DNA of 54,238 bases from a virus (IMGVR_UViG_2541047842_000005), one strand, 5' to 3'. Positions 2,521 through 18,160 are shown, numbered from the stretch's first letter. Notes: generated from the letters alone by a model not told the origin. Translations and numbers: made by a program.

Positions 2521-3942
2521 TTAAAAAGATGCGTTATTCTGGTTGTTTCGTGGTGAGAATCGGCTTGCAGACGGACGTTGTTGCATTGACTGGATGCAAG
2601 CTGACGCCGCGCGGGCCTGGTCGCATGGTAAGATGTTGCCGTTGTCGTCAAACCGCTGGTAAACAGTCCCCGTTTTCCCGTGACGGTTTTTCGAAACAAT
2701 GATCTCCATATATTCGCGGGCAACAGACTGTTCATCATAGTACCCGTCGCGGTAGACCATGATGATCCGGTCTGCGTCCTGTTCAAGATTACCGGAATCA
2801 CGCAGATCAGAATTGTTCGGGCGCTTGTTCGGTCGTTCCTCAACGCGGCGGGATAATTGCGCCAGTGCCAACACTGGTACGCGCAATTCTTTCGCCATCA
2901 TCTTCAACGACCATGACAATTGCCCTACAGCGAGATCGTGACGTTCGGCCTTAGCCAGCTTCATCAACCCGATGTAGTCAATCATTACCATACCGAGGTT
3001 GGGATGATCCTGTTTCATCCGTTCCGTTGTGGCGCGTATTTCCTCAACCGTTAATTGAGACGCGTCAACAATCCAAACGTCAAGATTAGCAAGTGCGCTC
3101 ATACCCTGACCAACATGCGCCAACCCCTCATCATCAAGTTTTACAGGATTACGCAGGCAGTCGGTTGATAAATTACCAGCGCCAGCTATAGCGCGTTCAG
3201 TCATCTGATCGAGTGACATTTCAAGCGTGAAGAACAAAACGCCAACCCGCTGATCTTTACTGCCAGGGTAAGGGTGCTCAGCAGCAGCGCGGGCAATCGC
3301 CAGCGCCAACGCAGATTTACCAGACCCAGGGCGTCCGGCGAGAAGTACCAAATCAGTAGCGTTAATACCGCCTAACATTTCGTCGAGCGGTTCTATCCCT
3401 GTTTTGATGTTGTCAGAATTGACACCGCATTCCATGCGCTTGCTTAAAACCTCTGTGTATTCCTGTACCGCATCGCGCAACAGAACAGGAATGATCTTGT
3501 CTTTCGTTACCTTTAATTTTGAATACCGGGAATCAAAATCTTTCATCGTCTCTTTGACGACTTCAAGCGTCCCCGTTTCCAGCTTGTAGCGCATATCGTC
3601 GATGAGTTCTAACATCTGCCGCCGCTGGTGCTCTTCACGTAGTAGCTGCGCATAGCCTTTCAGGTTTGCGGCAGAAGGACACGAACGCGCCGTTTGCATT
3701 AGCGGTACAAAGTTTTCATTGCCAATCTCATCGCCAACCAATAACGCGTCGATAAGATTCCTGTTTCTGGCTTGCGCCCGGATAACTTCAAACGCACGTT
3801 TGTAAAGCGGGATCGTGAACACTTCAGGATCCAGAGTGGCGAGAACATCTTGCGCGTTAGGAGTGAGGCCGCCTAACAGCAGCCCGCCGATAACTGACGC
3901 TTCACGTTCCTGCCGTAGTGAGTTTATTTGCTCAGTTACCAT
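2521..3942 (-). CDS. replicative DNA helicase, DnaB family
   Basis: 473 aa; Walker A LAGRPGSGKSALA, then DnaB-type motifs (FTLEMS, MVMIDYIGLM, ALAQLSRRVEERPNKRPNNSDLRDSGNLEQDAD). Confidence 0.9.
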   Translation of the reverse strand: MVTEQINSLRQEREASVIGGLLLGGLTPNAQDVLATLDPEVFTIPLYKRAFEVIRAQARNRNLIDALLVGDEIGNENFVPLMQTARSCPSAANLKGYAQLLREEHQRRQMLELIDDMRYKLETGTLEVVKETMKDFDSRYSKLKVTKDKIIPVLLRDAVQEYTEVLSKRMECGVNSDNIKTGIEPLDEMLGGINATDLVLLAGRPGSGKSALALAIARAAAEHPYPGSKDQRVGVLFFTLEMSLDQMTERAIAGAGNLSTDCLRNPVKLDDEGLAHVGQGMSALANLDVWIVDASQLTVEEIRATTERMKQDHPNLGMVMIDYIGLMKLAKAERHDLAVGQLSWSLKMMAKELRVPVLALAQLSRRVEERPNKRPNNSDLRDSGNLEQDADRIIMVYRDGYYDEQSVAREYMEIIVSKNRHGKTGTVYQRFDDNGNILPCDQARAASACIQSMQQRPSASRFSPRNNQNNASF

Positions 3943-3960
3943 TATGTTATTGCCTCCGGT

Positions 3961-5079
3961 TTACAAAATGGAATATTCAGGGTAATAAACAAAACGCCCG
4001 ATTTCCCCATGATCCGGGCTGTAAATAATCACCGCTGCCATCCGCCGCGACCGCCATCCGCCATTTGTTGAGTAAGCGTCTTTACCCGCTAACGTGCCGT
4101 GATACTCAACAACGCCTAACGATGATTCAATCAGCCGTTGATGATGCCAGTGCCCGCAATGAGCGTAAACCGCCGCAGACTTGCCAAAGTCTTCTCGCCA
4201 GTCAGAGACGCAGGCAGACAACAAATTTTCAGGTTTTTTGATAGTATGACCGTGATGATATGCAAGGAATGTTTTGCCGTACTGTGTGTGGTGGACGATG
4301 GCAGGTGACACATCAACAGTAACGCGCGGTTCGTCTTCGTAAAAAGCCGCCAGCGCCGCACGTAGCCAGATCATTCCTGACTGGTCGTGATTACCTGATA
4401 ACACCTGAATTTCTACATCCTTATGATTCAACAACATCTTACCTACAGCACGCCGGACCGACCGGATCGCCACATAAACAAGTTTTGCGTAGCGTGAATC
4501 GCAATCTAAGACGTGATTACTTGATGGCGTCACTGGTAATAGCCCGTCCGTGTGAAGCACATCACCGCCGAGAAGCAATACAGCTTTTTCAGACGTTGGT
4601 GCAGCGCCTACAGCGTAGTCAAAGAAGTCATTTAACACGCGTTCAGCGATCCCGGTGTCGTAGCTCTCACCGCATTCAGCTTTATGAGCAAGCGCCCCGA
4701 TATGCAGATCGAATACCGGATAAAGGGCCAGGCTTTTTTGGAAATCAATCTCAGGCACTGGCACAGCCTCCGCGCGTGGTATCTCTTCCGTGAAAGCGTC
4801 ACAAGCCGATTGCATTAGCATTTCCATTTCATCGCGGTCACGGGCTGTTTTAATCCAGCGCATAATCACATTGCCATCCTTATCGACGAGCAATGACTCA
4901 CCATTGACGCCAAAACCCGGCGCGCGACGCGTGGATATTAAACCGCGTTTCGCCAGCCGTGCGCCCAGTCGTTCAACGTTGCGTTTTGCCATTCCATATT
5001 CTTCGGCTATTTGCTTGTAAGTTTTCCCATTGTTGTATTCAGCGATTAATTGCTCGTCGCTGATCTTTCTTTGCGACAT
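3961..5079 (-). CDS. HTH domain fused to calcineurin-like metallophosphoesterase
   Basis: 372 aa; N-terminal HTH (YKQIAEEYGMAKRNVERLGARLAKRGLI); phosphoesterase signature DLHIG...GGDVLHTDG...GNHD; sits immediately upstream of the helicase gene. Confidence 0.65.
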   Translation of the reverse strand: MSQRKISDEQLIAEYNNGKTYKQIAEEYGMAKRNVERLGARLAKRGLISTRRAPGFGVNGESLLVDKDGNVIMRWIKTARDRDEMEMLMQSACDAFTEEIPRAEAVPVPEIDFQKSLALYPVFDLHIGALAHKAECGESYDTGIAERVLNDFFDYAVGAAPTSEKAVLLLGGDVLHTDGLLPVTPSSNHVLDCDSRYAKLVYVAIRSVRRAVGKMLLNHKDVEIQVLSGNHDQSGMIWLRAALAAFYEDEPRVTVDVSPAIVHHTQYGKTFLAYHHGHTIKKPENLLSACVSDWREDFGKSAAVYAHCGHWHHQRLIESSLGVVEYHGTLAGKDAYSTNGGWRSRRMAAVIIYSPDHGEIGRFVYYPEYSIL

Positions 5080-5255
5080 AATGTTATTTCCTCCGGTTCA
5101 CTGAATGAGTATTTATTCATAAAAAACTAATTTTTATTAACATGGGTTTCACGGTGGCAAAAAATGCCAGCAGGGTTAATCAACAACTTATGCAAATTGA
5201 AATAACTACTTAATGAATAACTAATCGTACACATTGTGGTTTACATTTTGTATAT

Positions 5256-6179
5256 TCATTGGCAGCAAACAAGCCCTTTATATGCTTCTTCTACCATGTC
5301 GAATACTTCCGGCCTGTAATAGAAAAACTCATTACTGCCATCAAATTTTACAGGAAAGTTAATTTTATAATTGCTGAAATATTTATGCATCATGCTTTCT
5401 AATTCATGGATATTTTCGGTTGGACCTTCTAACGTTTTCACGACACATAAATCAGGGATTCTAACGCCTGATTTATGTGCGCTTTTTAATACCCGATTTC
5501 TTCGCTTGTTCTCATTAACGCTTACGCCGATTTTCATTTGTGTAGGCACTTCAGGATCATCAACCATGATGTAAAGTTTGCCGAAATTGTGTGACAAAAA
5601 ACCGTGTTTCGCACATTTCGGGCAGCCTTGCCCGCTTTTAATAGCATAAGGTCTAGGCGACCACTTATGATCACAAACCTTGCATCGACATAATACTTTT
5701 GTCCTATCGTTTATTATTTCTCCCAATACTTCAATATCATGATTTACCTTAGTGATAGCGGATAAATGTTCTTCGTGTGATAATGTTCGTCTTTGTGCGA
5801 TTTTTAAACCTTTACATTTCGGGCAGCCGCGCCCGTTTTTTAGGTTGTTAGGTTTAGCCGACCATTCGTGATTACAAACTTTGCAGCGGCATAATGCTTT
5901 TGTATCGCCGTTTATTATTTCGCCAATCACTTCGACATCAGAATTAACCTTCTCGATAGCGGCAACCTGTTCTTCGTGTGATAATTTCATCTTTCCGGCG
6001 CATTTCGGGCAGCCGTAACCGCTTTTAAGATTGTAAGGTCTAGCCGACCATTCGTGACTGCAAACCTTGCAGCGGCAGGATACTTTTGTCCTGTTATTGA
6101 CAATTTCCCCCAGCACTTCGACATCATGATTAACCTTAGCGATAGCCGCAACCTGTTCATCATGTGTTAACTTGCGCAT
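5256..6179 (-). CDS. triple zinc-ribbon repeat protein with C-terminal T5orf172/GIY-YIG-like domain
   Basis: 307 aa; three tandem ~56-aa repeats HxEQVAAIxKVNxDVEVxGEIxNxxTKxxCRCKVCxHEWSAxPxNLKxGxGCPKC; C-terminus GKLYIMVDD..KIGVSVNENKRRNR..H..EFFYY fits the T5orf172 pattern; strong SD AAGGAG. Confidence 0.55.
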   Translation of the reverse strand: MRKLTHDEQVAAIAKVNHDVEVLGEIVNNRTKVSCRCKVCSHEWSARPYNLKSGYGCPKCAGKMKLSHEEQVAAIEKVNSDVEVIGEIINGDTKALCRCKVCNHEWSAKPNNLKNGRGCPKCKGLKIAQRRTLSHEEHLSAITKVNHDIEVLGEIINDRTKVLCRCKVCDHKWSPRPYAIKSGQGCPKCAKHGFLSHNFGKLYIMVDDPEVPTQMKIGVSVNENKRRNRVLKSAHKSGVRIPDLCVVKTLEGPTENIHELESMMHKYFSNYKINFPVKFDGSNEFFYYRPEVFDMVEEAYKGLVCCQ

Positions 6180-6320
6180 CGTTCCAACTCCTTAAAACGC
6201 CTCAGACGCGCTACAACGCAAAAATCCCACCGCGACACCCGTTTGCACAGGTTGCAGTGTCTTATTGCGTCAGAGGCGCTATCAGGTGTCTAATTTTTGA
6301 TTTACAGACTGGTAGGTAGG

Positions 6321-6422
6321 TTATGGATTTACTAGAAGGAACAAACCGCCAAACAAAACGACGTTAACAGCTATTGCCGCAGCTATGGCGAAAGCCAGGG
6401 CGAAAACGTGTTTACTATCCAT
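6321..6422 (-). CDS. micro-ORF, hydrophobic peptide (33 aa)
   Basis: MDSKHVFALAFAIAAAIAVNVVLFGGLFLLVNP; SD AGAGAGG 7 nt upstream of ATG at 6422; one predicted TM helix; not in the ORF track. Confidence 0.3.
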   Translation of the reverse strand: MDSKHVFALAFAIAAAIAVNVVLFGGLFLLVNP

Positions 6423-6555: not shown

Positions 6556-7602
6556 TCAAAGAGCGCCAGCGCGCGTATCACGTAGCGTTTTTGGTTTAAG
6601 CAGGAAATCAAGTGTCGCAGTGAAGCCATTGCCGAAGTAAAAATCTGAAGCCGTGTTTTTGAACGTTTCGAAGTAGGCGACAAAGCCGTTAATGCTTTTG
6701 TCTTTCAGGTAGTCAGTGAACGCATAGATCTTGCGTTCAAGATCCCGATCCAGTTCGGCAGGTGGTAACAGGCCGTCAAACGTGCTGTTAAATGCTTCCA
6801 CCACGTCGGCAGCGCTTACAGTAGCTGATAGCTTGCGCCATTGCTCAGCGTCAGCCAGATACCCATCGAATTTAGTTACCCGGCAAATGTTGATAGGCTT
6901 AGGTGTTCCACCACGGCTGCGCCATTGCGTCAAAGCCCATTCGATTACTAATGTGATCTCATCCTCCGTGTATGCCTTACGTGTTTTTGTTTCTGTCAGT
7001 AGTTCGATAAATGGCTTAGCATCACGACACTTGCATCCAGCTTTGTCGTTGTAGAAGGCCAAGCAACGCAATGCCGCTTCGTTTACGCCATCCTGATTGA
7101 CCGTTTTTTGTCCATTTTCGCTAATACACGAAGTGTATATATCTTTTTCACTTTCTTCTTCTACTTCTAATTCATGACCCTTTCCTGACCCGGTCATGAC
7201 CCTATCATGACCTTTTGGTGTTGGATTGATTAACTTCTCTAATTTTAATTGCTCCTTCGCTGTGTTTATAGCAGCCCTATAAGCACTCTTAGAAGTCATT
7301 GATTGGTCCAGCCTTTTTAATAACTTTAGGCAAGTTATGTGGCCTTGAGAACATTCGAACAAACCAATTTCGATGAAGTATTTCATCATTTCTTCTATAC
7401 GTTTTTCAGTAGATCCGACGTTTCGCGCAATGATTCTCGCGTCATGTCGTAGGTCAAAATTCAGATTGTGCTGATCTACGTCATAAGTTATTAGTTCGAG
7501 GCAATACCAATAAAGCCCGTACCCTTCCAGGCCATAATCTAACAAAACGTTTTGAAGTTTTTCATCGCGGTTCGCATCGCTGTCATGCTTAAACCACTTC
7601 AT
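6556..7602 (-). CDS. phage replication initiation protein (replisome organiser-like)
   Basis: 348 aa; N-terminus MKWFKHDSDANRDEKLQNVLLDYGLEGYGLYWYCLELI resembles the DUF4373-type N-domain of phage replication initiators; upstream of the helicase. Confidence 0.6.
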   Translation of the reverse strand: MKWFKHDSDANRDEKLQNVLLDYGLEGYGLYWYCLELITYDVDQHNLNFDLRHDARIIARNVGSTEKRIEEMMKYFIEIGLFECSQGHITCLKLLKRLDQSMTSKSAYRAAINTAKEQLKLEKLINPTPKGHDRVMTGSGKGHELEVEEESEKDIYTSCISENGQKTVNQDGVNEAALRCLAFYNDKAGCKCRDAKPFIELLTETKTRKAYTEDEITLVIEWALTQWRSRGGTPKPINICRVTKFDGYLADAEQWRKLSATVSAADVVEAFNSTFDGLLPPAELDRDLERKIYAFTDYLKDKSINGFVAYFETFKNTASDFYFGNGFTATLDFLLKPKTLRDTRAGAL

Positions 7603-17981: not shown

Positions 17982-18160
17982 AAAACGAAATTAAAGATCT
18001 GCAAATAGATGTTCAACGTGACGAGCATGATTTAGCGACAGTCAGACGAATCCAGGCTTTTCACATGCAGGAATTACTTGCGCTGAAAGAGCTTGAAAGA
18101 AAACTGGTGCAAACCATTTCTGATCGCAAACGCCTTATTGCTCGCTATGGGGGCAAATAA
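17978..18160 (+). CDS. hypothetical protein (60 aa)
   Basis: Compact ORF; predicted coiled-coil-like sequence. Confidence 0.4.
   Translation: MKNEIKDLQIDVQRDEHDLATVRRIQAFHMQELLALKELERKLVQTISDRKRLIARYGGK

Follow-up and report, generated by a model that had tools for sequence, protein, structure and literature searches.

A putative homing-endonuclease-type nuclease with three tandem zinc fingers on a mobile cassette of mEp021-like coliphages

We have analyzed a 54,238-nt stretch of DNA from the virus IMGVR_UViG_2541047842_000005 (called the window below, with positions counted from its first letter), and focus here on the gene on its minus strand between positions 5256 and 6179. This gene encodes a protein of 307 residues, in which three tandem zinc fingers are followed by a T5orf172 nuclease domain, and it is present, absent or replaced by other genes at exactly the same junction in related phages. 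We consider it probable, with a likelihood of about 0.6, that the gene is a free-standing, selfish nuclease cassette of the homing-endonuclease type, belonging to the T5orf172 branch of the GIY-YIG superfamily. The protein would, as we infer, bind zinc and DNA, cleave at a target site and promote homing of its own gene. An initial annotation of the window had already suggested a site-specific DNA-binding nuclease that resembles homing endonucleases, and the domain assignments, the predicted fold and the variation at the insertion slot all speak in favor of that proposal. The regulator and the defense or anti-defense factor that it offered as alternatives are less well supported, as will be discussed below.

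Architecture and predicted fold of the protein

The open reading frame (ORF) is intact over its 307 codons, running from 6179 to the stop codon at 5256-5258, and it is 99% identical to the annotated WP_021523507.1 locus. The whole protein falls into phrog_681 ("endonuclease") of the PHROGs collection with E = 3.4e-57. The T5orf172 gene occurs in one copy only within the window; a tblastn match at 18045-18131 (E = 0.028) was considered as a second family member, but it holds a stop codon and lies antisense to a 60-aa ORF, and it was therefore dismissed as a chance match.

Three units of ca 59 residues make up the finger array, namely finger 1 (aa 3-61, 5997-6173), finger 2 (aa 65-123, 5811-5987) and finger 3 (aa 132-190, 5610-5786), all encoded on the minus strand and with linkers of 3 and 8 residues between them. 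At the DNA level, Tandem Repeats Finder and a repeat tool give three direct copies at 6001-6173, 5815-5987 and 5614-5786, which have a core of 173 nt (57-59 aa) in common, start 186 and 201 nt apart (62 and 67 aa in the protein), and are 76-80% identical to each other. The protein identity between fingers 1 and 2 is ca 73% by hand count. Every unit carries the pattern C-x-C-x2-C...C-x2-C, that is, five conserved cysteines. The initial annotation had described three near-identical repeats of ca 56 aa, encoded by units of ca 168 bp and each with a four-cysteine CRCKVC...CPKC ribbon. The tandem arrangement, its visibility in the DNA and the cysteine motif are thus borne out, while the copies are less alike than claimed, the period is longer and the conserved cysteines are five rather than four.

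The repeats match two Pfam families three times each: DUF4379 (PF14311, "probable treble clef zinc finger"), with 70.5 bits and E = 1.4e-19, and the CapR homology domain (PF21817), with 64.0 bits and E = 1.5e-17, the gathering thresholds being 24.5 and 24.2 bits, respectively. For both families the best-scoring stretch is aa 83-124 in finger 2. The C-terminal part matches T5orf172 (PF10544) with 27.2 bits over aa 202-293 and MUG113 (PF13455) with 27.3 bits, and these two matches together span aa 202-295. As the thresholds are 20 and 22.3 bits, the T5orf172 (GIY-YIG-related) assignment made in the initial annotation is confirmed. A number of zinc-site look-alikes were rejected as domain assignments: those from NCBIfam (HypA and others) are all sub-threshold, and those from Pfam (HypA, Anti-TRAP and similar) are likewise below threshold and reflect the CxxC pairs only.

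A full-length AlphaFold2 model has a mean predicted local distance difference test score (pLDDT) of 86.5 and a predicted template modeling score (pTM) of 0.44. The sole segment of very low confidence (pLDDT <50) comprises residues 192-195, and it is located in the short flexible linker (aa 191-198, 5586-5609, minus strand) that joins the finger array to the nuclease domain. The combination of a locally confident model, a low pTM and this low-confidence segment is the pattern of independently folded beads on a flexible string. Each modeled finger consists of a helix, two short strands, a short helix and the start of a final helix. In finger 1, C37 and C40 are placed between strands 33-37 and 43-46, and C57 and C60 at the start of the helix 58-61. 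In an alignment of 34 sequences, C35, C37, C40 and C57 of this finger are invariant, and C60 is nearly so. The models are metal-free, and in them the C-x2-C pairs are placed as in a predicted treble clef, one between the strands and the other where the helix starts. Among solved structures, the finger repeat resembles only DUF4379 assembly factors of the trypanosome mitochondrial ribosome (PDB 6yxx_E2 and 6sga_Fd), which is an unexpected distribution for a DNA-binding module of phages.

We now turn to the C-terminal nuclease domain (aa 199-307, 5259-5585, minus strand). Modeled alone with 24 diverse homologues, it has a pLDDT of 95.5, a pTM of 0.86 and a beta-beta-alpha-beta-alpha core, and the predicted fold is GIY-YIG-like. 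The structures listed for this model, with the listed values in parentheses, are Slx1 (6.9 and 6.7), At-HIGLE (6.7), the catalytic domain of I-TevI (4.8), EF2693 and AtGRXS16 (4.5 each), PD-T4-3 (4.2), Eco29kI (3.9), T4 EndoII (3.7) and UvrC (3.4). An hhalign comparison of the profile with an I-TevI catalytic-domain sequence gave no usable alignment and is not used as evidence.

The domain has kept the conserved catalytic-type residues. In 25 homologues, with identities down to 26%, K216, G218, R226, E261, H265, F279, G281, E284 and F286 are invariant, and Y203, D207, P212 and I217 nearly invariant. Seven of these residues (Y203, K216, G218, R226, E261, H265 and E284) align with Y127, K138, G140, R148, E180, H184 and E202 of Odn (ICP1 ORF88) in a MAFFT alignment that has only ca 19% identity and is anchored by these seven columns. 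Odn is reported to retain the catalytic arginine and glutamate, and its E180A mutation abolishes both cleavage in vitro and the anti-satellite activity in vivo (PMC8263062). The pairwise ratio of nonsynonymous to synonymous substitution rates (dN/dS) of the nuclease domain is 0.06-0.30 among seven alleles, indicating that the domain is maintained by purifying selection and is not decaying.

The coding sequence of the nuclease domain also contains an inverted repeat of 13 bp without mismatches, its arms 10 nt apart (CACATAAATCAGG / CCTGATTTATGTG), at 5444-5479, corresponding to approximately aa 234-246. It may be due to chance, or it may be a regulatory or target-like element.

The cassette and its slot in the replication operon

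The window belongs to a temperate coliphage or prophage of the mEp021-like type (mEpimmI group). The sequences that match it best are E. coli chromosomes (99%) and the phages mEp021, MagusPhagus, mEp515, mEp013, mEp554, mEp044 and mEp010. As described in the initial annotation, and confirmed by the coordinates, the gene is flanked by the replication initiator (6556-7602) on one side and a phosphoesterase-like gene (3961-5079) on the other, the latter followed by the DnaB helicase gene (2521-3942).

The comparison with relatives shows that the gene is not universal among them and that it lies on a discrete cassette. In MagusPhagus, the STEC308 prophage and mEp010, positions 5118-6205 (1,088 bp) are replaced by 9 bp between collinear flanks. 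The cassette, read on the minus strand, consists of a leader with a ribosome-binding site, the nuclease gene and an AT-rich 3' tail of 138 nt, and its GC content is 33-40%, compared to ca 50% in the flanking genes. Its right border is at 6206 in seven of nine relatives and ca 5 bp further in (ca 6211) in the other two, and its left border falls at 5093-5117 across relatives.

The content of the slot varies considerably. Apart from the 9 bp of the three empty sites, it can hold a one-finger T5orf172 gene (574 bp, mEp013), a gene with Bro-N and KilAC domains (776-780 bp, mEp515 and strain 127), the three-finger T5orf172 gene of this window (1,088 bp), an unrelated DUF559 gene (1,233 bp, strain M15) or a six-finger T5orf172 gene (1,530 bp, mEp021). 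Domain swapping with the DUF559 protein of strain M15 was considered and rejected, as the two proteins have no fingers or other similarity in common.

On the homing-type reading, the three tandem fingers of the CapR/DUF4379 type would read the DNA sequence as a beads-on-string array, and the linker of ca 8 residues would place the single GIY-YIG-type active site beside the bound site, resulting in a nick or a cut. The gene would travel as a small cassette that is inserted into the early replication operon of mEp021-like (mEpimmI) coliphages, with a conserved hairpin immediately upstream of it and the phosphoesterase-like gene immediately downstream, and would be transcribed with the operon. 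When a phage with the cassette meets a related genome lacking it, cleavage near the junction would be followed by recombinational repair that copies the cassette, together with the adjoining flank, into the other genome.

The flanks were also compared, using 20 loci and with phylogeny not controlled for. The near flanks (4950-5117 and 6206-6400) are 77-91% identical, compared to 87-98% at a distance of 200-600 bp, and the left near-flank is 97% identical to alleles of the P0050 type and 77-85% to those of the P0041 type. This divergence is suggestive: it fits co-transfer of the cassette with its flank, but also selection at a target site. Furthermore, the L014 prophage has the same cassette and downstream genes, whereas its initiator (L014 3634-4626) is a 330-aa protein of the HTH_36 family, compared to the Lin1244-type initiator of the window (6556-7602). 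That the same cassette abuts a different initiator means that it sits at a boundary of genetic exchange.

A second nuclease slot is found one gene away. In mEp021, mEp515 and mEp010, a homing-type endonuclease with HNH_3 and AP2 domains is inserted between the phosphoesterase-like gene and the helicase (L001 1576-2079, L003 1576-2130 and L007 1041-1631), while the window lacks this gene and has only an 18-bp gap there, at 3942-3961. The phosphoesterase-like gene itself (3961-5079, minus strand) codes for a 372-aa protein that is kept beside the helicase in all relatives. It has no Pfam match at E <= 1e-3, and it is labeled metallophosphoesterase in one RefSeq record and DNA repair exonuclease in one phage record.

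It is important to separate the cassette from the sequence that borders it. The initial annotation stated that the gene is followed by a hydrophobic micro-ORF and an inverted repeat of ca 90 bp. Both exist (33 aa at 6321-6422, minus strand, and ca 6197-6285, respectively), but both are upstream of the nuclease gene as it is transcribed, and the connection with it does not hold, since they are conserved backbone that is also present in relatives without the gene and hence not part of the element. The terminator-like backbone hairpin (6206-6285, minus strand) forms the upstream border of the slot, outside the cassette, and occurs in each of the eight sequences under comparison (the window and seven relatives), regardless of what the slot contains. 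Of the outer stem, only the last ca 9 nt (6197-6205) are cassette sequence. Folding of the 161 nt from 6170 to 6330 gives an energy of -50.3 kcal/mol (z = -2.2). We have asked whether the inverted repeat is a cassette end or a structured RNA element, but it is backbone sequence in all relatives compared, shows only one compensatory pair among the eight sequences, and has no Rfam match over 6206-6285, and both options were thus discarded. The U-run that follows the hairpin in empty sites makes it look like an intrinsic terminator, and as mEp021-like phages have been reported to be Nus-dependent, it may be a regulated one. The micro-ORF (MDSKHVFALAFAIAAAIAVNVVLFGGLFLLVNP) is strongly hydrophobic and is kept in relatives with and without the cassette; the DNA differences among them are mostly silent, and it is therefore probably a genuine small membrane peptide of the replication operon.

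After the hairpin, the cassettes with T5orf172 genes and the unrelated one with DUF559 have a leader of ca 12 nt in common, GUCUGAGGCGUU (6193-6208 in the window, with equivalents in L001, L006 and L008), whereas empty sites and Bro/KilAC cassettes carry GUUUUACGG in its place. These two different sequences suggest two insertion histories at the slot. In the window the leader extends the stem of the hairpin, which explains the length of ca 90 bp given previously for the repeat. A scan for consensus promoters in the stretch from the upstream hairpin to the start codon of the nuclease found none, and the gene is most likely transcribed by read-through from the early operon.

Family distribution, finger variability and alternative explanations

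The protein has 1,918 relatives at E <= 1e-5 in a large protein database, where they are named "GIY-YIG nuclease family protein" or "zinc-ribbon domain-containing protein". Among the best 120 of these, a count of the cysteine pattern gives two to six fingers in all but three, and the lengths increase in steps, at ca 244, 310, 376, 444 and 502 aa. In a collection of 50,697 phage records, 430 match, 148 of them nearly over the full length. The hosts include Escherichia, Staphylococcus, Salmonella, Klebsiella, Vibrio and other genera, there are often several copies per genome, and the labels of named matches include homing, GIY-YIG or HNH endonuclease.

Relatives are also found in unrelated phages at locations that are classic for homing endonucleases. 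While the P0041 and P0050 alleles (71-74% identical) sit in the slot of the window gene in many prophages of E. coli, the P0107 relative (58% identity) is located on an unrelated phage contig, between nrdD and nrdG, and the P0103 relative is in a third genomic context, neither the slot nor nrdD-nrdG. On the P0107 contig (L021 965-3865), nrdD is split into two ORFs by a 169-aa ORF, which may be another intervening selfish element, beside the T5orf172 gene.

The variability within the finger array is of special interest for the function. Over 361 finger units of the family, the scaffold is strongly conserved and ca 10 positions are hypervariable (27, 28, 39, 43-45, 47, 48, 51 and 53 of the unit), most of them between the two cysteine pairs. 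In the 22 units with DNA, the dN/dS of the hypervariable codons is 0.7-1.2, compared to 0.10-0.25 for the framework; these sites were chosen for their variability, which makes the raised value partly circular, and a value near 1 is suggestive only, as it also fits relaxed constraint. Alleles from the same slot differ in finger number (1, 3 and 6) and at most of the hypervariable positions, while their nuclease domains are close, with a proportion of nonsynonymous differences (pN) of 0.05-0.14.

A number of observations weigh against a homing-type nuclease. The finger differences just described are not predicted by a single conserved homing site. The low dN/dS of the nuclease domain would suit a function beneficial to the host equally well as ongoing homing. 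The slot is also occupied by Bro/KilAC genes, which are unrelated and do not code for nucleases, so that presence and absence could arise by ordinary recombination in the conserved flanks without any nuclease activity. Single-sequence and profile searches of the sequences of solved structures reached no GIY-YIG enzyme and gave weak DUF4379 matches only, and the catalytic equivalence of the C-terminal domain thus rests on the Odn alignment and the fold. Finally, T5orf172 genes are termed "putative" homing endonucleases in the sections of the literature cited here, and the sole biochemistry found for the domain is that of Odn, which has a different DNA-binding domain.

Since simple one-site homing leaves the finger variation within the slot unexplained, we have retained another scenario, although we regard it as rather unlikely. 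Here the nuclease would be a domesticated weapon that cuts co-resident competitors, such as related superinfecting phages or satellites, and changes in the fingers would re-target it in the course of an arms race. The differences in finger number and hypervariable residues on top of close nuclease domains, the contrast in dN/dS between hypervariable and framework codons, and the purifying selection on the nuclease domain are all compatible with this, and there are precedents, namely Odn, which acts against PLE satellites, and cases from Inny and Muut, which are phages of E. coli (PMC8263062, PMC10448857). Yet no candidate target was identified, the dN/dS argument has the circularity noted above, and enzymes of the Odn type have borrowed their DNA-binding domain from the target's own initiator, which the present protein has not. 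In addition, a weapon and a homing gene are not sharply distinct, given marker exclusion by homing endonucleases. The involvement of the cassette in host defense, being expressed in the lysogen and cutting the DNA of unrelated infecting phages in analogy to the stand-alone GIY-YIG protein PD-T4-3, appears very improbable to us. The slot is indeed a variable accessory-gene position of a temperate phage, and PADLOC returns a single weak match, to the candidate system PDC-S57 over the nuclease domain (E = 1.3e-4), but this match reflects the shared nuclease domain only. The gene is also located inside the early lytic operon on the strand of the replication genes, expression in a repressed prophage is not expected as no consensus promoter was found between hairpin and start codon, and relatives are common in strictly lytic phages.

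The remaining option, to which we give the smallest weight, is a CapR-like regulator, in which the fingers bind a promoter or operator of the phage or of a competitor and the nuclease is inactive or secondary, as in CapR or in the autorepressor role of I-TevI. The match of the repeats to the CapR homology domain and the position in the early regulatory/replication region agree with this option, and for CapR itself a sequence-specific repressor activity, with cysteine-dependent binding, is established (PMC8096241). However, CapR resembles only the finger domains of the ICP1 proteins (PMC8096241), while the nuclease domain of the present protein is intact, keeps all conserved catalytic-type residues and is under purifying selection. 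Moreover, the gene is dispensable, as there are related phages without it. We thus return to the homing-endonuclease type of cassette as the preferred explanation.

The arms-race scenario has a more specific and somewhat more doubtful extension, according to which the finger array would be a naturally re-programmable code for DNA recognition, re-targeted against competing phages or satellites rather than serving homing at one site. Each 59-aa finger would then be a rigid scaffold on which ca 10 hypervariable residues read a few base pairs, and the nuclease would be re-targeted both by residue changes and by gain or loss of fingers, giving 1, 3 or 6 of them on nearly the same nuclease domain. 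If this were true and the residue-to-base code simple, the arrays would correspond, in compact bacterial form, to zinc-finger or TALE nucleases.

In annotations, the name T5orf172/GIY-YIG-type, homing-endonuclease-like nuclease with a triple zinc-finger array can be given to the gene with confidence, and the junction between initiator and phosphoesterase-like gene can be marked as a slot for accessory genes in coliphages of the mEpimmI type. A family that has mainly been studied in the genomes of ICP1 and other phages is hereby extended to temperate phages of E. coli that occur commonly in the human gut. No concept is changed by the finding. The empty, one-, three- and six-finger alleles in cultivable phages (MagusPhagus, mEp010, mEp013 and mEp021) do, however, constitute a natural series for questions of homing and specificity.

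Comparison with known systems

The architecture, the repeat dynamics and the placement next to essential genes have already been published for the family of T5orf172 homing endonucleases (Netter et al. 2021, PMC8096241; Barth et al. 2023, PMC10448857). According to the latter survey, 87% of T5orf172 genes have at least one CapR, DUF723 or "DUF4397" zinc-finger domain, often repeated like beads on a string; the repeats expand, contract and swap by recombination, and the genes adjoin essential genes and sit at boundaries of genetic exchange (PMC10448857). All of the present findings agree with this picture. The survey names DUF723 and "DUF4397 (PF14344)", whereas the best Pfam match of the present protein is DUF4379 (PF14311). 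DUF4379 matches both this protein and the ICP1-like proteins, and the designation in the survey may or may not be a slip.

The closest parallels are T5orf172 proteins such as gp121, gp165 and gp174 of ICP1, with tandem zinc fingers of the CapR/DUF723 type at the N-terminus and T5orf172 at the C-terminus (PMC10448857, PMC8096241). Pfam gives three CapR domains followed by T5orf172 for ICP1 ORF121, that is, the same composition as here, and the Y/K-I-G/R/E/E residues are conserved in gp121, although the two nuclease domains are only ca 21% identical. A variable repeat number, a place beside essential genes of replication or nucleotide metabolism and a position at exchange boundaries are also features of these putative homing endonucleases. 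A difference concerns the host, which in our case is a temperate, Nus-dependent coliphage of the mEpimmI type; the words "temperate" and "prophage" are absent from the main text of PMC10448857, and the mEpimmI genome paper (PMC11893012) does not discuss the nuclease gene or homing endonucleases.

Odn (gp88 of ICP1; Barth et al. 2021, PMC8263062) has the same Pfam T5orf172 domain, with R148, E180 and E202 in the positions of R226, E261 and E284, and provides the experimental proof that such a domain cuts DNA (PMC8263062). In contrast to the present protein, it has no zinc fingers but a RepA_N-like domain (Pfam DUF6945), and it is a domesticated anti-satellite weapon and not a homing gene.

CapR, the capsid-operon repressor of the Vibrio cholerae PLE satellite, belongs to the zinc-finger DNA-binding family of the repeats, PF21817 being named after it, and gel shifts have established that it binds DNA sequence-specifically and by means of its cysteines (Netter et al. 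2021, PMC8096241). The same paper reports its domain as common to ICP1 proteins that end in T5orf172 and were proposed to be homing endonucleases. CapR is, however, a repressor that resembles only the N-terminal finger domains of these nucleases (PMC8096241), while the window protein combines three fingers with an intact nuclease domain. The cysteine patterns also differ, being C-x-C-x2-C...C-x2-C here and CxxC...CxC as reported for CapR.

Finally, I-TevI and the T4 Seg proteins have a similar modular, beads-on-string construction, with a small zinc finger within I-TevI's DNA-binding part (PMC8096241 and references in PMC8263062), and they are likewise encoded by free-standing genes between phage genes. 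There is no detectable sequence similarity to them, and the order of the parts is reversed, since the nuclease of I-TevI is N-terminal and followed by a long linker, whereas that of the present protein is C-terminal and follows a linker of only ca 8 residues. In the second motif, the classical GIY-YIG enzymes have a tyrosine (Y-I-G) where the window protein has a lysine (K-I-G).

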